NCBI GenBank assembly: GCA_964631415.1
Contig: CAZVZC010000017.1
Coordinates: forward strand, 9,249-37,565
DNA length: 28,317 nucleotides
Direction: 5' to 3'
Source: an uncultured archaeon
GTDB lineage: Archaea > Asgardarchaeota > Thorarchaeia > Thorarchaeales > Thorarchaeaceae
Below the pieces are notes generated by a model. That model did no database searches and was not told the DNA's origin. It saw only the letters and a program-made list of their open reading frames with translations. The position numbers were made by a program, and so were the translations under genes. Position 1 is the first letter of the stretch, and each line of letters begins with the position of its first letter. Shown in pieces: positions 6,285-23,882 of this stretch.

Positions 6285-7040
6285 CTAGAACAGGATCGAG
6301 AGACACGTCAGCGCCCCTTCACACTTCTCGAACTCGCTAACGTCCAAACGTGTGACCTCATAACCTGCATCGGTGATCATCTCTGCAGTCCGGTCGAATC
6401 CTGCAGGCATGATGACGGCATTTCCTATGGTAAGGGTGTTAGCCGCGTACCCCTCATTGTCATCGACAATCAGCAACTCGTACCCTTCAAGTGCAGGGTG
6501 GTCTGCATAGCTCTTCCTGCAGACCATTGTCTTTCCGCTCAAGTAGGTGACATGGCTTTTGAGGTGCACAATGTACGGGTCCCTGATTGCATCGACTTGG
6601 ACCTTGAACCAGTCACTCATCTGGAAGACGCCCTTAACATTCGTCCGCTGTGAAACCCCGCTGATGAGCTTGTCGGGAAGATGAATCACATCGCCCCCTT
6701 CTAGGGTCCCAGGCTCGCTCACTCTGCGAACAGGAAGATACTGACCGAGGAGTGACTCAACTGTGTCCTCCTCCCCTTGTCTGCTCTTCGCCGCCATCCT
6801 TGCGATCAGGGCCCTGCTGTTGTGTATGACAGCAGTGTCCTCAACGAAGCATGAGTCGGGGTAAGCATCCTCAGCTTTCATTGTGAGCAGCTCAAGACCG
6901 AGCTCCTTGAGTGTGGTGCAGTAGGCACGATGTTGCTCCATGGCTTTCTTCGCACTCGCAGTGCTGTGCAATGGATGAGAGGAGATACAGCGTGGGAAGC
7001 TGCGGCTTGGAGGGCGCACAATTGCTCTCTTGGGTGCCAT
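6285..7040 (-). CDS. Dimethylarginine dimethylaminohydrolase (DDAH)/amidinotransferase-superfamily hydrolase
   Basis: YPDSCFVEDTAV, RQGEE, LEGGDV, RTN, HLKS, YAAN, SEFEKCEGALTCLS. The Glu-His-Cys catalytic residues are present, and 251 aa is typical DDAH length. Confidence 0.92.
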   Translation of the reverse strand: MAPKRAIVRPPSRSFPRCISSHPLHSTASAKKAMEQHRAYCTTLKELGLELLTMKAEDAYPDSCFVEDTAVIHNSRALIARMAAKSRQGEEDTVESLLGQYLPVRRVSEPGTLEGGDVIHLPDKLISGVSQRTNVKGVFQMSDWFKVQVDAIRDPYIVHLKSHVTYLSGKTMVCRKSYADHPALEGYELLIVDDNEGYAANTLTIGNAVIMPAGFDRTAEMITDAGYEVTRLDVSEFEKCEGALTCLSILF

Positions 7041-7348: not shown

Positions 7349-7618
7349 CTACCCCCGTTCATACACCACGCCCTTTCCACCAGAGGGATAATGGAAGTCG
7401 ATGGCGTCCGCTTCGCACACCTGATAACAGGCTCCACACTCCACACACCTTGACTTGTAGTCATCAGCAATGTACGCTTTATTGCCTTTCTTTTTCCAGA
7501 GCCCCATTGTACATACTACCAGACATCGTCCGCACATATTGCACTTTGCCGAGTCGATCTTGATGAAGTCAGTGGACCCTGGGATTCTTGTGACCAACGA
7601 ATCGATGCTTGCTCTCAA
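7349..7618 (-). CDS. 2x[4Fe-4S] ferredoxin, FixX-like
   Basis: CNMCGRCLVVC and CVECGACYQVC, with the FixX-like tail YPSGGKGVVYERG. TTG start overlaps the upstream stop (TTGA). Confidence 0.93.
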   Translation of the reverse strand: MRASIDSLVTRIPGSTDFIKIDSAKCNMCGRCLVVCTMGLWKKKGNKAYIADDYKSRCVECGACYQVCEADAIDFHYPSGGKGVVYERG

Positions 7619-9015
7619 GTTCTTCCCTCCTTCTCTTCAAACGCAGAGGCGATAGATTCCTGAAGCTCAGGCATTGAGGCTATCAGTTTCTCGGGATTCG
7701 TGAGGAGTTCCATCTTGTCCCCCAGAATCTTCTCCAATAGCGGAAGGACATCTCTCATCACAAATGGTATTGCCTGTGGCAGATACGACTTGACATGTCG
7801 CATCACCTGTCTGACGCGGACGGCGTGAGGCTGCGACCAGTCAAGTATGCCTCCGAGTATCTCCATTATCATTGGCACGAACCAAGACATTGTTTCTTTG
7901 GGACTGAACGGGAGTGCTCTCCATATTCGAGCGAGCTCTGGACCAGTCTTGAACTCTTCACCAATACTTGTCTGCTGCCACTTCTGATCATAGAGGTCCA
8001 GAAATTCCTTAGACGTGTCGCTTGATGAAATGGCGTCAGCCGCAGCTTCGGCGGCTGCTCTTCCAGTGACCATCGCGGGATAGATCCCTTCGGCCTCGAG
8101 GGGACATGGAAAACCACCGGCATCGCCGACCAGGATCACATTGTCAGTGTGGGTGCTCGTGGGACTACCGAGCCACGGCAGCAAGTGAGCATGGTACTCT
8201 CGCGGTCGCGCGTCAAGTATCCTCACGAGTTTCTGAAAGTACTCCAGTTTGACCACTTGATCGAGGTAGTGGAGTGGGTTCTTGTCCCACCATGTCATCC
8301 AGTTACCCAGTCCGAGATGAAAGCCGTCATGAAAGAATACTTGGTAGGCCGCCGGGAATAGTGCCGACCACCAGACAGCCAGTGTTTCATCGCCCATTAT
8401 ATCGTCGATCTTCTGCGGGTCAACTGCGAAGTCGTATTGCGGCACGAGTGTAACATGGTCTTGGTCCCATCTCTTGCGGAGACCGCTCTGTCTGGCTACC
8501 ATGGAAACGACTCCGTCAGCACCTATGACCAGACCGTGATACTTCTCACCATGCTCGTCGACGACACCTACGACTCTGTCATTCTCCTTGAGAAGTCCGG
8601 TCACGAGTGTTGAGGTCTTGAGTTCTGCACCTGCATTGGTCGCGAGTCCTGCGAGCCAAGGATCGAAGTCGCTCCTGTACACGTTCATTGTGATGAAGCT
8701 CTTCGCTGGCTCGTAAGAAACAGACTCTGTCGGCCTCGCCATGACATAGCCAGCCACGACCCCCTGCTTGTTCACAAAGTAGCTTCTAGATGCAGCCCCG
8801 GCTCTCATTGATGGACACACTTCGGGGGTGAGGTCCTTCATGAAACGAAAGTCGGCCCACATTCTTGGGCCAAGTCCACATCCAGAGGAGTTCTTCTCAC
8901 CAGGTTTCCGGCCCCTCTCGAAGAAGACTGTCTTTAGTCCCCGGCTAGCGGCTTCCATTGCCGCAATTGACCCGCCTGGACCAGCTCCGACAACGACAAT
9001 GTCATAGTTCTTCAA
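7615..9015 (-). CDS. FAD-dependent oxidoreductase, FixC/geranylgeranyl-reductase family
   Basis: DIVVVGAGPGG Rossmann motif, ERGRKPGEKNSSG (FixC-like), RSDFDPWLA, VIGADGVVS, ILVGDAGG..EGI..AM. Translationally coupled to the ferredoxin. Confidence 0.9.
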   Translation of the reverse strand: MKNYDIVVVGAGPGGSIAAMEAASRGLKTVFFERGRKPGEKNSSGCGLGPRMWADFRFMKDLTPEVCPSMRAGAASRSYFVNKQGVVAGYVMARPTESVSYEPAKSFITMNVYRSDFDPWLAGLATNAGAELKTSTLVTGLLKENDRVVGVVDEHGEKYHGLVIGADGVVSMVARQSGLRKRWDQDHVTLVPQYDFAVDPQKIDDIMGDETLAVWWSALFPAAYQVFFHDGFHLGLGNWMTWWDKNPLHYLDQVVKLEYFQKLVRILDARPREYHAHLLPWLGSPTSTHTDNVILVGDAGGFPCPLEAEGIYPAMVTGRAAAEAAADAISSSDTSKEFLDLYDQKWQQTSIGEEFKTGPELARIWRALPFSPKETMSWFVPMIMEILGGILDWSQPHAVRVRQVMRHVKSYLPQAIPFVMRDVLPLLEKILGDKMELLTNPEKLIASMPELQESIASAFEEKEGRT

Positions 9016-9457
9016 TCTTGTCCACCTGACTGCCTATTCTCTTCCAAGACCCTTCAAGGCTTCCAGAAACGCGAATCCCTGGTCTCATGTAATTCGGCAG
9101 GCGGACATATAAGTGGTAGCCCGAGAGAAGAGATGAATTCGACGCATTCCTAACATCGCATAACTTGTCAGGCATGTCAACTCGTTTGCAGGGACTGAAT
9201 AATCCAACCATGCTCAAAGCTGAGCAGATGATTCCTCAGGTTCTCTCACTCTGCTTGCCCTTGCGAGTAGAGAGCAAAGCGTTATTAGTGCCCTGTGTTA
9301 TTGGCGTTTCAGTTCGCTGGGCGACCGAAGGATGAGGAAGTCGAGCACCCCCCAGCGGAACGTCTGGCAGGACTCCTAAAGAGACTGCCACCGTCCTGTG
9401 CGGCTGGATACGATCCCTCTTCGTTCGGCTTCGCTTGATAGAGGAGGCTCCGAGAGC

Positions 9458-12400
9458 TTGCATAGGAATCTGTTCCGTGTTCAGCTATTGTCAGTTCTTC
9501 TTGTTCTTCTGATGGTTATTGGAATCGCACCTCAGGCCGTATGGGCAGGTCAGGTGCTGGAACGCAACGAGGAGGCGTTGTCGCGGCCATTCATGGGTTA
9601 TGACCTCGATTCAATCTATGTGTTCTATGATCCGGATGATGAGGTCATGAGAGCCGTGGCCGATGGTATTCAGGAGATACTGTGTGTTAGGATAATCAAT
9701 GTCATCATGGTTCCAGTCAACTCATACAGTGATTTTGAGTTTTGGCTGCTAGATGACCCGTGGATTGCTGTCTATGCTCTTCGGTCAAACCTCAACCATG
9801 TCCTCTTCTCTGACCAAGAGCTGCTGTGGAAACAGTTCTATCAAGTCCTGAACGAGCATCGGTCGACCCAGCACATTGTGGCGATGGGGAATACCCTGTC
9901 GCTTCAGCCGTTCCTGACTGAGAACGACAAGATGATCCACACAAGCGAGTCGGAGCAGACTGACGGTCTCATTATGATTCTCTACGGCGTCTGGGGTATC
10001 ATGGACATATGCAAGCAGCGCGCTCAGTATGACCCAACCTATCAGGGTGCAGCCGACGACCTTGAGAAGATGGTCCTCACCATCTATGGTAATCAATTCA
10101 ATGAGTTTTTCAAACGGACAGTCGAGCCCGTTAATCCTGTCGGCGAGATGGATCCCGCAGCCGCAGAGATAAGGCGGCAGAGGATGTGGGCGAGACATCC
10201 CGGGAGCGTTGCTGACTCGGCATACACGTTGTTGGAGAACGGTTCTCTTGAGCAAGTGCCGCTCGACCAACTGCCTGAGAGTTTTGCGCCGGTCATTCAG
10301 CTGAGCACCTTGGCTGAGGTAGAAACCGGTTCATTCGTTCTTGGCGAACTGCCCCTCTTCTCAGGCCTTAGTGGTCCTATCGGGGCGATTCTCGACGTGC
10401 TCCTTGATCTCCTTGTGGGAAGTGGAGAGAGTGTCATATCCATTCCCGAAGACACAATGAGCAATCTCAAAGACATCTTTGACGCGATTCAGCCGTTTCT
10501 CGGAATTGTCAGTGACTTCGACCTTGACAGCCCGCTCAAGTCCATCATTAGCGGACTTATCAGCGAGTTTCCATTCCCTGAGGACTTGAAGAAGTATCTT
10601 GAGCCCATACTCAAAGCCCTCTTCAACATGCGAGGAGATTTCAGCAGTATTCTCGGAGTCGTTGGCGAGCTGCTTGAGGGCCTCCTCCCAGAGATAATCC
10701 CACAGGAGATTATGGACTGGCTGGACACAGTTCTGGATCTGGGCGGTGAGTTCTGGAGCCTTGTTGAGGAAGTGATAGCGGGTGGCAAAGGCGCTTTCAA
10801 CACAATCCTTAGCTATGTCACAGGTAATATTCTGAGTGGCCTGCTGAACAAGGTCCTGACTGCCACGTTAGGCCTATCACCGGGCGATGTTGTAGACCTG
10901 ATTGACAAGGCTGTCGCGACAATCAGCTCGATTGTGGACTATATAGCCAGTCTCGATTTCTCCCAGTTTATTGCAGATGTTGGGCAGAAGCTCATTCAGA
11001 CCGCATTCGGACTTCTAACCGATGCAGTAGGTCAGGACACGCTTGACCGAATCATGGCTATCATCAAGATGGGGGTTTCTGCTCTCGACCTTGTTGACAA
11101 CTTCGACCAGAACTCGCTCATTGAGCTCGTCACCAGTCTCGTAGACGAGTTCTTCGGACCCGGAATAATCACTACTGCGGAAGACTTCGCCCGCGATTTG
11201 ATGGAGGTAGTCAAGAACTACTCAGAGCGGGTCGAGTCAAGCATCTCTGCGTTCCAGACGGAGATCATGAACATCATAAACAGTCAGACAAATGGGATTG
11301 CACAGAACGTGAAGGATGTTGTGCGTGACGGTCTGACTCTCATTGGTGGCTTCTTCAATGAGGGCTTCAACCCCGCTGACGTTCCTGACATCTTTGATGT
11401 AGTCGAAGGAGCTGTGAACCTCCTTCCGACCATGTCGTACGAGTACACTCTGGCAGATGCTGCAGAGGTGATGGAAGTAATCAACGGCGCTGTGAAGCCC
11501 GTACTCGGCGTGATCGCAACAGCTACTGACTCCGATGGTCTGAAGAAGATGGTCAGTCGGACTGTCAGTAGCTTCGAGTCCGAACTTGGGTCGATACCCG
11601 ACGTCTTCGCTGACCTAATCAAGTTTGTCGACGTCGGTGATGTTCTTCCATCTCTACCCAACCTTGACTCTGTGCTAAGCACGTTTGGAGAGATCAGCGG
11701 TGGAATAATGAACATGATTGGCGCTGTCCGCCATCAGAGTTTCCAAGGCATCATGCAATCCCTGCTGATGGCAGTGGGCTCCATGGTCGGCATGTTCCCG
11801 TCCTTTGACGACGTGGACATCAGCGCTTACCTGAAGCTCCTTCAGGCGTTCTTCCCTGAGTCGTTTGACCTGGACAAGTACAGTATCAACACGAACGAGA
11901 TAGTCAACGAGATAGTCAGCATGGCTCAGGGCTTGCTGTCAGGTGTCGTTGACATAACAATGCTGAAGGACATTCTCAACTTCCTGATGGACGTCAAGGG
12001 GATATTCACTGACGGTATTGAGTGGCTACTTGGGAAGGCGTTCGACTGGTTGACTGGCATGATTACGCCTTTGCTGAAGGACCTTGAGGATACAATCAAC
12101 GGGCTATTCGGCGGCGCGAATGACCTGATGGGAAAGGATGGAACCCTACCGATCGGCCTTGGGGACTGGTCTCTGTTTGAGCTGACCTATGACTTGGGCA
12201 TTCGTGTTAACTTCAAACTGGACCCGACTCCCTTCTTTGAGTTGCTCAGGGGTGTGATCTTTGAGGGCAGAAACCCATTTGCTCTCGGTGACGTTGGCGA
12301 CTTCTTCAAGATCATATTCTCGTTCTTTGAGATCTCTCCTCAGTTCTATGCCGAGGTCGGTGTGACTGGGTTCGACTCTTCAAAGAATCCCTTCATGGAC

Positions 12401-15400
12401 TTTCTTCTGAGTATGCTCGGCTTGGAACTGAGCTTCTCGGGCTCAGCCCACTTCGTTCTCACCCTGTTCACATTCCGTGGTGGTGAGTTCGAGTGGGAGG
12501 ACTTCTTCAACATAGTCGAGTGGGGCCTTTCGCTCGATGTGGGCATGAAGAGGACAATCACCCTACTTGACTTTGTGACAGGCGGCGTTGGCGGTGGTGT
12601 GCTTGGAAAGCTCGGCAAATATCTTGGACTCGATTCAATCAGTGTTGACATATGGCTGAACATAGAGCTTGACATAGTCAAGAAGGCTGCCACTGCTCTG
12701 GAAGCTGAGGTTTCAACACTAACGCTTGCTCTGACCCTCGGCGTTGCTATCAATTTGGGCATAGACCTACTGATTGCAGCCGCAAAACTGAGGGGCTCGC
12801 TTGAGATAATCCTGACTTTCTTCCAAGACTTATCATCATCGGCTCCTATGCACATAGTCCTTCGGCTGATCTTCACGCTGAAGCTGACCATCAGGTTCCT
12901 GTTCTGGGACTGGGACAATACATGGACGTGGGAGCCAGGCGGCCCGTGGGACCTGTCACCCGGCAAGGACGACGAGGAAACCAAGAACTCGGGCATTGGG
13001 TTCGATAGCGATGATGACGGGTTAGGTGACGAGTATGAGGCAACTGTGCCCGGTCTGAACCCGAATGCAGCGGACACTGATAATGACGGAGCAAGTGACA
13101 AGCTCGAGGTCAAGACAATGGGGAGCGACCCAGTCAATCCTGACTCAGATGGCGACGGACTTCTTGATGGCGAGGAATGGGACTTAGGCACCAATCCAAT
13201 GTTTCCCGACTCGGATTGGGACGACCTCTCTGACTACGATGAAGCGAGGGTATACATGACTGACCCTCTGTGTCAAGACACTGATGGCGACGCTCTGACG
13301 GACGCCTACGAGGTTTTCACGGCGTGGAACATCAGCACAGTCACCCCAACCGTTACTGAGGTAGTGATTGGTGGTACATCCTACAACGATCACACTGATC
13401 CGTTGAACCCGGACACAGATGGCGATGGACTCATGGATGGAGATGAGGGTCCGACCGGGTGTTACTACGGTCTGCCGTCTCTCTACAACACAAGCGCAAG
13501 CTCTCCAATGGATCCGAACCCGCTCATATTCGGCGGCGGTTACACACATCCGCTCGATAGCGACACAGACGACGACTCGTACCTCCAGCTGTACAACGGT
13601 GCGGTCGACACTCAGGCGCTCTTGTTCCTCAAGGACATGAATGATGGAGCTGAGGTCGCAGGTTTCTGGATCATCCTCTATGACTCAGAGGGTGAACCCG
13701 AGCGTAAGCAGGTCTTCACTAATCCATGCAACCCAGACACCGACGGAGACACTGGTGTGACTGATAGGACGCCACAGCCCGGCGCATGGCTAAACTCGGA
13801 CGGCTATGAGCTCGCACAGACGCCCCCCACAGACCCGACCGATGGCGATACAGATGATGACGGTCTGCTCGATGGTCTCGAAGGTGTCCTGAACCAGAAC
13901 AGCAACCACACTGATCCTACAGACCCTGACACTGACGATGATGGACTGTTTGACATGCAGGAAATGCTTCTACGATGTGACCCGAGGAGCTCCGATACTG
14001 ACCTCGACATGATCAGTGACGGCGAAGAGTTCTATCGCTTCTTCACAAACCCCTTCTTACCCGACTCGGACTTCGATGGTTTGAGTGACGGCGAGGAGGT
14101 GTGGATGTGGCACACCAACCCATTGGCCGATGACTCAGACGGTGACTATCTCAGTGATGGACTGGAGGTCTTAGTCTACGGCTCGGACCCGATGGATGAG
14201 GACGGTGATAACGACGGCCTGACCGACTACGAAGAGATACTCGTCTACGGCACAGACCCATTCGACTACGACTCGGACGATGATCAGCTCAGCGATGGCG
14301 AAGAGATTCTGTACTATGGCTGCAACCCACTTGCATGGGACACTGATTTGGACTCGATCACTGAACCGAACGAACTGGGCGACATGACTTGGCCCATGTC
14401 AGACTATGACGAGGTCATGATTTGGGGCACGAACGTGACAGAGCCTGACAGTGACATGGATGGTCTGTCCGATGGAATAGAGCTGTACCTTGGCTCGGGT
14501 CTAGTCCCATGGCTCGACCCAATCCCACTCGACCCGCTGTCCAAAGACACTGATCACGATTGGCTTGCTGACGGTACAGAGCTGAACCTGATGAACGTGA
14601 GCGATATCGTGTATCCGTTCTTGTCTGTCACTGTCGTCCTGAAGTATAACACATCGCCCGTCGAGATGGACTCGGACGGAGACACTCTAACGGACTATCA
14701 AGAGGTCAATGTCTTCAACACGAACCCCGCCTGCAACGACACTGACAATGACACGCTCGGAGACTGGTGGGAGGTCTGGGTATACAACACCTCCGCAATA
14801 AGCAATGACACTGATGGCGACCAACTGTGGGACTTTGAAGAGAACGTGACTGCTCTCTATCCACACGGGCCATGGCCCCCGTCAAGCTGGAATGAGGGAA
14901 TGACTTCTGAGAACGAGATCCCATGGGGTGAACCGCCACCGGAACCTGTGTATCCTGTAACGCCAGCGAGCATCGGTCCCCCGAGTGGCTTCGTAATCTC
15001 GCAGACCAAGTATCAGACCTCGGCGACCGACTGGGACTCTGACGGAGACTGGCTCCCTGACGGCGCGGAGGTCTACATGTATGGGTCCAACCCTCTGAAC
15101 GATGACTCGGATTCTGACGGCATCGCGGACACATATGAGTTCGATACGGACTACGACGGTCTTCCAGACGGGATTGAGTTCCGCATGGGTCTCCAGACGC
15201 TGCCTAACGGTGGTATCTTCCAGCCGGACTCTGATTTTGATGGTCTGCTTGACGGAGAGGAGTACTTTGTCTACCACACCCACTGTGCGAAGGCTGACAC
15301 TGATGGTGACGGTTATTCTGATGGACTTGAGGTTGCTCTGGGCCTAAACCCGTTGGAGTACACCTCAGGAGAAGAGTTCAATCTCAAGCTCGCTGTCGAA

Positions 15401-15940
15401 CGCGGCACGAGATCGCTCCGCATCATGACGCCGGCGAACAGTACCAAGGTATACCAGAACACTCCTGTCAGTGTTGCGAACTTCACGCCATTCCAGAACA
15501 TGTGGTTCAGGTTCCGGAACGGAAGTGATTGGAGCCAAAACCATACGCTGGGCTACAACCCCTCATCAGGGATGTGGCAGAACGTTTCAATCCGTTGGCA
15601 GCCTGGGTCGTACGAGCTTCAAGTCTTCGGACTGAACAACACCGGGGTGACACATGCAGCGGTGTCCTATTTCGTCGCACAGCCTGGAGATGATCCATTC
15701 TGGCGCAATGTGATGATAGCTGGTGCGGCTGCGGCTGGTACAATCTTCCTCGTTGGACTCATAGACTACAAGACAGGCAAGGTGAGAGCTGGCTTGAGGA
15801 GACTCGTCAGACGCGGAGGGACAAAGCCTGCCACAGCTGCGTCAGCTCCAAAGACAAAGGAGAATGCCGAACCTGAGTCAAGTGGTGAAGAAGTGAAAAA
15901 GAAACGCCCATCGAAGGGCAAGAAGACGGGAGGCGAGTAG
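9458..15940 (+). CDS. Giant (about 2160 aa) membrane-anchored surface protein: alpha/beta N-domain, long amphipathic helical region, amphipathic beta region, TSP3-like Ca2+-binding repeats, Ig-like domain, C-terminal TM
   Basis: 6.5-kb ORF. The likely start is TTG 9458 after GAGGAGG (9441-9447), while the ORF track starts at 9398. It has a signal-like N-terminus, about 25 D-[ST]-D-x-D-G-L-x-D-x-x-E units, TM VMIAGAAAAGTIFLVGLI and a Lys/Arg-rich tail. Confidence 0.92.
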   Translation: MHRNLFRVQLLSVLLVLLMVIGIAPQAVWAGQVLERNEEALSRPFMGYDLDSIYVFYDPDDEVMRAVADGIQEILCVRIINVIMVPVNSYSDFEFWLLDDPWIAVYALRSNLNHVLFSDQELLWKQFYQVLNEHRSTQHIVAMGNTLSLQPFLTENDKMIHTSESEQTDGLIMILYGVWGIMDICKQRAQYDPTYQGAADDLEKMVLTIYGNQFNEFFKRTVEPVNPVGEMDPAAAEIRRQRMWARHPGSVADSAYTLLENGSLEQVPLDQLPESFAPVIQLSTLAEVETGSFVLGELPLFSGLSGPIGAILDVLLDLLVGSGESVISIPEDTMSNLKDIFDAIQPFLGIVSDFDLDSPLKSIISGLISEFPFPEDLKKYLEPILKALFNMRGDFSSILGVVGELLEGLLPEIIPQEIMDWLDTVLDLGGEFWSLVEEVIAGGKGAFNTILSYVTGNILSGLLNKVLTATLGLSPGDVVDLIDKAVATISSIVDYIASLDFSQFIADVGQKLIQTAFGLLTDAVGQDTLDRIMAIIKMGVSALDLVDNFDQNSLIELVTSLVDEFFGPGIITTAEDFARDLMEVVKNYSERVESSISAFQTEIMNIINSQTNGIAQNVKDVVRDGLTLIGGFFNEGFNPADVPDIFDVVEGAVNLLPTMSYEYTLADAAEVMEVINGAVKPVLGVIATATDSDGLKKMVSRTVSSFESELGSIPDVFADLIKFVDVGDVLPSLPNLDSVLSTFGEISGGIMNMIGAVRHQSFQGIMQSLLMAVGSMVGMFPSFDDVDISAYLKLLQAFFPESFDLDKYSINTNEIVNEIVSMAQGLLSGVVDITMLKDILNFLMDVKGIFTDGIEWLLGKAFDWLTGMITPLLKDLEDTINGLFGGANDLMGKDGTLPIGLGDWSLFELTYDLGIRVNFKLDPTPFFELLRGVIFEGRNPFALGDVGDFFKIIFSFFEISPQFYAEVGVTGFDSSKNPFMDFLLSMLGLELSFSGSAHFVLTLFTFRGGEFEWEDFFNIVEWGLSLDVGMKRTITLLDFVTGGVGGGVLGKLGKYLGLDSISVDIWLNIELDIVKKAATALEAEVSTLTLALTLGVAINLGIDLLIAAAKLRGSLEIILTFFQDLSSSAPMHIVLRLIFTLKLTIRFLFWDWDNTWTWEPGGPWDLSPGKDDEETKNSGIGFDSDDDGLGDEYEATVPGLNPNAADTDNDGASDKLEVKTMGSDPVNPDSDGDGLLDGEEWDLGTNPMFPDSDWDDLSDYDEARVYMTDPLCQDTDGDALTDAYEVFTAWNISTVTPTVTEVVIGGTSYNDHTDPLNPDTDGDGLMDGDEGPTGCYYGLPSLYNTSASSPMDPNPLIFGGGYTHPLDSDTDDDSYLQLYNGAVDTQALLFLKDMNDGAEVAGFWIILYDSEGEPERKQVFTNPCNPDTDGDTGVTDRTPQPGAWLNSDGYELAQTPPTDPTDGDTDDDGLLDGLEGVLNQNSNHTDPTDPDTDDDGLFDMQEMLLRCDPRSSDTDLDMISDGEEFYRFFTNPFLPDSDFDGLSDGEEVWMWHTNPLADDSDGDYLSDGLEVLVYGSDPMDEDGDNDGLTDYEEILVYGTDPFDYDSDDDQLSDGEEILYYGCNPLAWDTDLDSITEPNELGDMTWPMSDYDEVMIWGTNVTEPDSDMDGLSDGIELYLGSGLVPWLDPIPLDPLSKDTDHDWLADGTELNLMNVSDIVYPFLSVTVVLKYNTSPVEMDSDGDTLTDYQEVNVFNTNPACNDTDNDTLGDWWEVWVYNTSAISNDTDGDQLWDFEENVTALYPHGPWPPSSWNEGMTSENEIPWGEPPPEPVYPVTPASIGPPSGFVISQTKYQTSATDWDSDGDWLPDGAEVYMYGSNPLNDDSDSDGIADTYEFDTDYDGLPDGIEFRMGLQTLPNGGIFQPDSDFDGLLDGEEYFVYHTHCAKADTDGDGYSDGLEVALGLNPLEYTSGEEFNLKLAVERGTRSLRIMTPANSTKVYQNTPVSVANFTPFQNMWFRFRNGSDWSQNHTLGYNPSSGMWQNVSIRWQPGSYELQVFGLNNTGVTHAAVSYFVAQPGDDPFWRNVMIAGAAAAGTIFLVGLIDYKTGKVRAGLRRLVRRGGTKPATAASAPKTKENAEPESSGEEVKKKRPSKGKKTGGE
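13004..15350 (+). repeat. Coding repeat array: thrombospondin type-3-like Ca2+-binding repeats
   Basis: Repeated G[TS][DN]PxxxD[ST]DxDGLxDxxE units of about 22-24 aa, diverged at the DNA level and interrupted by variable inserts. Confidence 0.88.
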
Positions 15941-15941
15941 A

Positions 15942-23882: not shown

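Follow-up and report, generated by a model that had tools for sequence, protein, structure and literature searches.

The locus described here raises the question of whether two giant neighbouring genes of an Asgard archaeon encode one apparatus at the cell surface and, if so, what that apparatus would do. The genes, called A and B below, lie in a 28,317-nt window (the whole stretch of DNA analysed, positions 1–28,317) from contig CAZVZC010000017.1 of the assembly GCA_964631415.1. To our knowledge, no gene has yet been assigned to the surface structures of cultured Asgard cells. Such cells have no S-layer, bear ‘complex surface proteins’, adhere while crawling and touch their syntrophic partners (PMC9834061; PMC13716822; 10.1101/2025.07.22.663070), and the cultured relatives of the present host have a single membrane (PMC9834061). 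An initial annotation, made from the letters alone, had proposed that the pair is a candidate adhesion or cell-contact apparatus, of special interest if the host were an Asgard archaeon. The host is indeed a member of the Thorarchaeota, and every named relative of A is Asgard. As set out below, A and B are found together, side by side and, in some genomes, as a single fused gene, and the pair is predicted to work as one unit outside the cell.

Genes A (9458–15940) and B (15942–23882) are both encoded on the forward strand and were predicted to yield membrane proteins of 2160 and 2646 aa, respectively. The open reading frame (ORF) coordinates confirmed the annotated layout of two genes in 14.4 kb: the TAG stop of A ends at 15940 and the GTG start of B lies at 15942, leaving a spacer of 1 nt in a total span of 14,425 nt. 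The ORF list gave A as 9398–15940 from a GTG codon; the TTG at 9458 is more likely its start, because a GGAGG ribosome-binding site read from the sequence (9443–9447, forward strand) lies 10 nt upstream and the alignments of homologues begin at about this point. The GGAGG ribosome-binding site of B (15929–15933, forward strand) is placed within the last codons of A and is overlapped by the final GG of the A tail, an arrangement that reads as a signal for translational coupling. ATGA overlaps with GGAGG in the last codons of the upstream gene were also observed at the junctions of two other genomes (G040 and G051) and of a paralogous operon in the window's own genome. Just past the stop of B, a G+C hairpin followed by TTTCTTTTT (23891–23929, forward strand; 8-bp stem at 23891–23916) may mark the end of the transcript. 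The shared terminator of the initial annotation remains plausible insofar as this stem and its TTTCTTTTT follow B and the 1-nt gap between the genes is too short for a terminator, but the hairpin was not more stable than shuffled sequence (z −0.75) and was not listed by a pattern scan.

The distribution of the two genes also indicates that they belong together. In a survey of 400 Asgard genomes, the head of A (its N-terminal part; counted at E ≤ 1e-20) was detected in 93 genomes and B (residues 1–1300, counted at E ≤ 1e-40) in 88. Genomes are denoted below by G (G000 being the window's own), families by f and genera by g. The numbers of genomes with A and B were 46 and 44 among the 85 of f1, 10 and 10 among the 31 of f5, 10 and 9 among the 12 of f14, 12 and 12 among the 22 of f21, and 0 and 0 among the 135 of f9, respectively. 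For loci with both matches on one contig, the coordinates were read by eye, and A and B were adjacent and co-oriented at more than 50 loci from approximately 10 families. The order was A followed by B except at at least five loci, where B preceded A (G051:C23, G060:C7, the second copies in G120 and G125, and G128:C49). No locus of the 400-genome survey carried A without B, or B without A, on a contig long enough to judge. One candidate for B without A (G019) was rejected, as B is cut there by the contig end.

The pair also occurs as a single gene. Four genomes of genus g6 (G023, G366, G367 and G375) contained one A-B frame of 4716–4901 aa, and a fifth (G379) contained an A-B frame of 4271 aa that ends at the contig end. 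The junction of the 4897-aa fusion in G023 retains the membrane helix of A and the N-terminal hydrophobic helix of B, linked by about 55 aa of basic loop; with this topology, the two large parts would be tethered next to each other on the outer side of the membrane at a ratio of 1:1. Taken together, the co-presence by family, the adjacency and the fusion argue that A and B are one functional unit. The initial annotation had named independent occurrence of the genes in relatives as the outcome that would speak against a joint apparatus, and conservation across archaeal genomes as the point to check; the near-identical family tallies, the adjacency and the fusion point the other way.

Searches of larger collections gave the same picture. 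The N-terminal 1160 aa of A retrieved 53 relatives among 5.8 billion proteins, nearly all 2050–2350 aa long and annotated as hypothetical; those with names came from Thorarchaeota, Lokiarchaeota (including the cultured Lokiarchaeum ossiferum), Promethearchaeota and Heimdallarchaeota only. Full-length homologues of A were 42–95% identical, all named ones being Asgard. An exhaustive HMMER search with the A head over 1.84 billion representatives yielded 89 clusters, of which the ten checked were Asgard or metagenome sequences. The central 420 aa of B, searched against 5.8 billion sequences, matched Asgard B proteins of 2630–2700 aa only. A and B proteins carry consecutive NCBI locus tags (EAX95_11350/11355, ACTSYL_12885/12880 and NEF87_004127/004126), the last pair being A and B of L. 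ossiferum, respectively. Lokiarchaeia A heads (G184, G187 and G190) were 43–47% identical to the window copy, no more distant than some copies from its own family f1 (44–45%), and two long cassettes occur in several Thorarchaeota genomes; old paralogy or a transfer between classes may account for both observations.

The two proteins share a general plan. Signals and membrane helices were called from hydropathy and sequence pattern, which bore out the annotated N-terminal signal and C-terminal transmembrane segment with a basic tail in both A and B. Protein A would be a type-I membrane protein consisting of a signal peptide, a three-domain head, a stalk of TSP3 repeats, a membrane helix and a basic tail. 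Its putative signal peptide (9458–9550; residues 23–54 of the long GTG frame form the N-terminal hydrophobic segment) has a basic n-region, a hydrophobic core with a hydropathy of 2.5 and the junction AVWA/GQ. The C-terminal membrane helix (15707–15769; hydropathy 1.99) is followed by a predicted cytoplasmic tail (15770–15937) of 56 aa with a net charge of +11, which is poorly conserved save for the final GG. In B, a signal or signal-anchor was recognised in residues 1–28 (15942–16025; hydropathy 2.33), which in the fused proteins lies inside the chain as a membrane helix, and a membrane helix in residues 2614–2640 (23781–23861; hydropathy 2.46), followed by KRRRDES. The positive-inside rule puts both tails in the cytoplasm.

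Between signal and membrane helix, A has a net charge of −270, and the equivalent part of B has −238. The ‘dozens’ of DxDxDG loops that had been reported for each gene hold for A and B pooled, or for the looser DxDxD motif (33 in A and 19 in B); the strict motif was counted 14 times in A (0.28 times in shuffled sequence) and 9 times in B (0.17 times). The many N-glycosylation sequons likewise stand in part, with a significant excess in B (34 against 18.9 expected, P=0.001) and an excess in A that was not significant (19 against 12.6 expected, P=0.055). Hydropathy, the positive-inside tails, the calcium repeats and the sequons would together locate both proteins at the cell surface.

The stalk of A (13004–15337) comprises 23 TSP3-type calcium loops of 12 residues each with a period of about 23 residues, as identified by motif count and by the Pfam family TSP3_bac (PF18884; 58.1 bits against a gathering cut-off of 25, in six stretches). 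TSP3-type loops fold around calcium, so that an extended stalk is possible where calcium is abundant. TSP3_bac was the only Pfam match in A at E ≤ 0.01, and no TSP_C, EGF, TSP_1, VWA or integrin-beta model was matched. The NCBIfam model of CglD (NF033765) scored 133.7 bits against an equivalog cut-off of 400, aligning residues 1550–1815 of A to profile positions 141–408 of 1124, that is, to the repeats only; the MtsD model scored 40.6 bits against a cut-off of 800, again in the repeat region only. By these matches, the stalk is best assigned to the bacterial TSP3 repeat family, and neither to the thrombospondin family nor to the CglD family.

The head of A was modelled with AlphaFold2 (AF2) from 38 sequences, giving a mean predicted local distance difference test score (pLDDT) of 77.8 and a predicted template modelling score (pTM) of 0.46. 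With this pTM, the arrangement of the three head domains relative to each other is uncertain. Domain 1 (residues 45–345; 9590–10492, pLDDT 82–94) was predicted to be a three-layer alpha/beta sandwich. Its 50 matches listed by VIA included a designed protein (Z 10.7), SAVED-CHAT (Z 10.3, 160 residues aligned, root-mean-square deviation (rmsd) 4.3), periplasmic-binding and LacI lobes (Z about 10), PurE (Z about 10) and legumain (Z 8.9). These are many unrelated Rossmann- or flavodoxin-like folds that are effectively tied (Z approximately 9–10.7), and none of the 50 best matches was a VWA or I-domain. SAVED-CHAT and legumain would fit a caspase-like fold, which is one of several equally well-matched readings of domain 1. 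Domain 2 (residues 360–885; 10535–12112) comprises about 520 aa that are all helical in the AF2 secondary structure, and it had no Pfam, PDB or Atlas match.

Domain 3 (residues 889–1147; 12122–12898) was predicted to be a sheet of ten long strands of 8–19 residues with one hydrophobic face, and a separate AF2 model of residues 830–1160 from 59 sequences reached a pLDDT of 82 and a pTM of 0.64. Most strands alternate strictly, one face being 78–100% hydrophobic and the opposite face mostly polar, and the strands are interspersed with short hydrophobic helices and a Gly-rich loop that is conserved. No other part of the head is as well conserved: mean identity is 59% in domain 3 against 41–45% in the other head domains, and it is still 59–60% between Thorarchaeota and Lokiarchaeia. 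All 50 VIA matches listed for domain 3 were walls of membrane beta-barrels, nearly all from bacterial outer-membrane proteins (Z 8.4–11.8, 133–227 residues aligned, rmsd 3–8.6); among them, CymA reached a Z of 11.8 with an rmsd of 5.3 over 192 residues, EspP a Z of 10.8, and TonB-dependent receptors a Z of about 10 with an rmsd of about 4 over about 200 residues. Membership of domain 3 in the outer-membrane beta-barrels was nevertheless rejected, as only about ten strands are wall-like, helices interrupt the sheet and no closed barrel was predicted.

Foldseek matched domain 3 to FepA (E 4e-4) and to microsomal triglyceride transfer protein (MTP; E 0.018), and the whole head best to lipovitellin (1lsh, E 9.9e-4) and MTP (6i7s, E 1.4e-3). 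The lipovitellin and MTP matches were marginal (probability 0.33–0.38, template modelling score 0.06) and were lost on re-alignment, not being among the top VIA matches, and the reading of the head as a lipid-transfer protein was accordingly demoted to a minor rival. The N-terminal 1160 aa of A had no Pfam or NCBIfam match, phmmer against the PDB returned a chance match only (E 0.9), and a feature search of the ESM Atlas with the head gave scores of ≤0.83, which is noise level. As modelled, the head of A would thus represent a fold without a convincing solved relative.

Protein B was predicted to be a chain of beta-propellers interspersed with other regions. Propeller 1 (16119–17090), with FG-GAP/BBS7-like blades, is the part shared with the paralogue B′ described below. 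It is followed by a tentative F5/8 type C (discoidin)-like stretch (17226–17459), for which Pfam gave 19.8 bits, below the cut-off of 28.2; by propeller region 2 (18339–19901), composed of FG-GAP repeats with DxDxDG loops; by a central region of 420 aa (19899–21161) without a Pfam match at E ≤ 1; and by propeller regions 3–4 (21162–23741), with blades of the lambda-carrageenase, PQQ and FG-GAP types. Pfam matches to B comprised FG-GAP_3 (99.8 bits), FG-GAP (25.2 bits), Beta-prop_CGLA (86.7 bits) and PQQ_2, and the propeller repeats reach right up to the membrane helix. Fourteen calcium loops of the FG-GAP type were counted. FG-GAP and related propellers are typical platforms for ligand binding.

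The initial annotation had framed the pair by reference to integrin alpha heads and thrombospondin stalks. The repeat types themselves are present in B and A, respectively, but phmmer with B against all PDB chains gave no match, integrins included, at E ≤ 0.01, a GFFKR-type motif is absent from the B tail (HTLKRRRDES), and the TSP3 model matched by A is the bacterial one. From these comparisons, B is best regarded as a member of the FG-GAP/VCBS propeller superfamily, and kinship with integrins or thrombospondins appears limited to repeat types that are common in prokaryotes.

The window's own genome also contains a shorter, paralogous cassette (G000:C18:9938-22460) of three genes, A′, B′ and C′, joined by 4-nt overlaps. 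A′ (1594 aa; TSP3_bac 148.6 bits) aligns only to residues 13–364 and 877–1817 of A and is without the helical head domain of about 510–520 aa. Because this domain is absent from the paralogue, the alpha/beta domain and the sheet domain probably constitute the conserved core of the A head. B′ (1982 aa) contains FG-GAP propellers and an NHL six-bladed propeller, with matches to SGL and Vgb-lyase-like families, and C′ (598 aa) contains an fn3 domain. Six relatives were found to have C′ (G008, G009, G010, G011, G012 and G017), in each case directly 3′ of B′. Since A′, B′ and C′ are kept together in the window's own genome and in six relatives, the cassette appears to have been duplicated and to have diverged as a unit. 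In G012 and G034, the short cassette is present and the long one absent. Elsewhere in the genome, a giant ORF (G000:C6:61935-67814) with a frame of 2297 aa had more than 12 matches to TSP3-like repeats, weakly matched residues 1848–1971 in the propeller region of B, and would combine both repeat types in a single chain.

These features lead us to the following model. A and B are inherited together as an accessory cassette with signals for coupled translation and encode two giant acidic calcium-binding membrane proteins, each of which would be anchored by its C-terminal helix with nearly the whole chain outside the cell. The three-domain head of A would stand on a stalk built from its 23 TSP3 calcium loops of the bacterial type, and B would carry at least four beta-propellers of the FG-GAP and PQQ types in one chain. 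The two would be produced in roughly equal amounts and would act together as a two-subunit 1:1 surface assembly that mediates calcium-dependent attachment to partner cells, particles or a substrate. Both the physical complex and the adhesive role are steps that we infer, and we judge such an assembly, carried as optional equipment, to have about an even chance of being correct.

Several observations weigh against this model or narrow it. Adjacency and fusion indicate a shared function and not necessarily binding, and beta-propellers and calcium repeats occur in enzymes and nutrient-binding proteins too. The head of A was absent from approximately 77–78% of the sampled Asgard genomes; in the family of L. 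ossiferum, the A sheet domain was detected in 3 of 14 genomes and the cassette was absent from 10–11 of 14. Even within the genus of the host, two of the three other genomes (G001, 93% complete, and G003, 88% complete in 20 contigs) lack A and B, while the third (G002) has both, with an A that is 93–94% identical. In the window, the cassette is flanked by an amidinotransferase-like gene upstream (6285–7040) and by an element (24178–24332) and an ORF (24432–24998) downstream; the 17 kb between these flanks contain an FAD-dependent oxidoreductase gene (7615–9015), A and B. At the syntenic site of G003 (G003:C3:278000-290000), the homologous flanks are only about 1.7 kb apart, no remnant of A or B was found, and the oxidoreductase gene lies about 55 kb away. 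Because the flanks are so close in G003, the oxidoreductase gene, A and B have been subject to insertion, deletion or rearrangement between close relatives. The cassette is accessory and is gained or lost as a unit. Given the patchy distribution and the empty site, neither Asgard contact nor adhesion in general depends on it, and it is neither the basic envelope nor a general contact apparatus of Asgard archaea.

Among the other explanations, it is unlikely, though well worth considering, that A and B are surface proteins expressed together from a ‘surface toolkit’ operon, with common regulation and perhaps a common pathway, that do not assemble into a complex. Genes for giant surface proteins often cluster, as exemplified by the NosD/beta-helix genes around the pair in G040, the extra B-like gene in G025 and the fn3 gene after B′; nevertheless, the two genes occur together almost without exception in about 10 families, are translationally coupled, have become heritably fused in frame in one genus and were duplicated as a pair, which exceeds what is usual for co-regulation. 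Alternatively, the head of A could be a lipid-binding or membrane-engaging module on a calcium-stiffened stalk with B as its targeting partner, the sheet and the Gly-rich loop binding hydrophobic ligands or the membrane of another cell. We regard this as rather improbable, though it would be compatible with the two-subunit model. The high conservation of the sheet domain, the strict alternation of its strands with one hydrophobic face, the barrel walls among its listed structural matches and the Foldseek matches to lipovitellin and MTP would fit such a module, whereas the marginal quality of the lipid-transfer matches counts against it, the likeness to barrel walls may reflect long antiparallel strands alone, and the hydrophobic face may be buried beneath the domain's own hydrophobic helices.

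There is a slim chance that the pair is a device for extracellular nutrient capture or glycan processing, in which the B propellers bind or cleave polymers and A serves as a scaffold. The Beta-prop_CGLA and PQQ_2 matches in B, the NHL, SGL and Vgb-lyase-like matches in B′ and the weak discoidin-like stretch are in line with this, but such matches are fold-level repeats, and among the loci read the pair had no conserved transporter or glycoside hydrolase as a neighbour. A main surface coat substituting for an S-layer would accord with very large, glycosylatable, membrane-anchored proteins and with the cultured members of the lineage that have no S-layer (PMC9834061). It is, however, very unlikely for proteins that are missing from two genomes of the same genus, one of them with an empty site, and from about three-quarters of the phylum sample. 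Hardly credible at all is the proposal that the pair is ancestral, or truly homologous, to the integrin alpha/beta pair of eukaryotes with a thrombospondin-like partner. The FG-GAP repeats and calcium loops of B recall such a system, as does the presence of two subunits that each cross the membrane once and end in a short or basic tail, but B matched no solved integrin and has no GFFKR tail, A matched neither VWA, integrin-beta and EGF models nor a thrombospondin C-terminal domain, its TSP3 match is to a bacterial model, FG-GAP/VCBS propellers are widespread in bacteria, and the cassette is patchy within Asgard archaea.

A narrower version of the two-subunit assembly would make A and B a heterodimeric calcium-dependent adhesion receptor, with the sheet and the Gly-rich loop engaging a substrate or a partner bacterium, the latter at its membrane or surface, and the A tail coupling to the cell interior. 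In this specific form the idea is doubtful; were it true, the archaea most closely related to eukaryotes would have evolved, independently, a functional counterpart of eukaryotic adhesion receptors. More generally, few predicted surface-protein units in these genomes are as large as the cassette, and its named carriers are all Asgard. Its presence in the cultured strain L. ossiferum makes it a concrete candidate for the surface structures of Asgard cells. The patchy gain and loss mark it as a strain-level option and not a hallmark of the phylum, which limits any claim about eukaryogenesis. The notable point of the A head is a conserved sheet with a hydrophobic face that resembles a barrel wall, in an organism without an outer membrane.

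Three further features were noted around the cassette and its relatives. The non-coding stretch at 24178–24332, just 3′ of B, shares 76% identity with its syntenic counterpart in G003, a value above that of the DNA of the neighbouring ORF, and a tRNA scan of the window found none. In G025 (G025:C621:5174-7966), the extra B-like gene lies directly 3′ of B, with a frame of 2342 aa that is 47% identical to residues 361–1300 of B. In G040, which belongs to another family (G040:C1:63000-82500), genes on either side of the pair encode NosD/right-handed beta-helix proteins about 630 aa long, possibly surface proteins.

No paper was found that joins Asgard archaea with FG-GAP repeats, or with thrombospondin-type repeats in these proteins, or that names NEF87_004126/004127 or UYP47842, and the cassette was not found described in print. 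The nearest published descriptions concern Nerearchaeum marumarumayae, which has an irregular surface and many surface proteins of the propeller and fibronectin types, and the ‘badge’ protein LOKIASV2_13140, a very large surface protein of novel fold with very large beta-sheets and homologues in all Promethearchaeaceae genomes (10.1101/2025.07.22.663070). Both the badge protein and A are very large predicted Asgard surface proteins with large beta-sheets; judged from distribution alone, they are probably different proteins, since the former occurs throughout the Promethearchaeaceae and the A sheet domain in only the 3 of 14 L. ossiferum family genomes mentioned above.

Among eukaryotic and bacterial systems, integrin alpha and other members of the FG-GAP/VCBS superfamily (ITFG1/2, FAM234, BBS2/BBS7 and bacterial VCBS proteins) share the DxDxDG-bearing FG-GAP blades with B, and integrin alpha additionally shares a single C-terminal membrane helix, a short basic tail and a second single-pass partner subunit. 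B differs from integrin alpha in its several tandem propellers and unmatched domains, in a tail that lacks GFFKR, in matching no solved integrin by sequence and, with Pfam propeller repeats reaching up to the membrane helix, probably in having no thigh or calf legs. No integrin-beta feature was matched in its partner A. The sheet of A resembles the walls of CymA, EspP and TonB-dependent receptors in its long, curved, strictly amphipathic antiparallel strands; outer-membrane barrels are nonetheless set apart by the closed barrel that is not predicted in A, by the host having no outer membrane and by the absence of sequence similarity. Lipovitellin and MTP resemble the A head in having a helical domain followed by a large sheet, with no sequence similarity and a marginal structural match.

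The 12-residue Asp-rich calcium-loop runs (PF18884) of A are shared with the gliding adhesin CglD and the cell-cell cohesion proteins MtsD/MtsC of Myxococcus xanthus. CglD, however, belongs to a diderm bacterium and is lipid-anchored as a lipoprotein, whereas A would be a single-pass archaeal membrane protein with an unrelated head of 1150 aa and an obligate propeller partner. The giant adhesins of the RTX/Bap/LapA type are likewise very acidic, contain few cysteines and hold a distal head on a stalk of calcium-rigid repeats; they are single chains that use type I secretion and reside at an outer membrane, in contrast to the two genes or fusion, the membrane helices and the single-membrane archaeal host of the present cassette. 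Overall, the cassette combines known repeat types with a head that has no convincing solved relative, and its place would be among the giant calcium-stiffened surface adhesins of prokaryotes.

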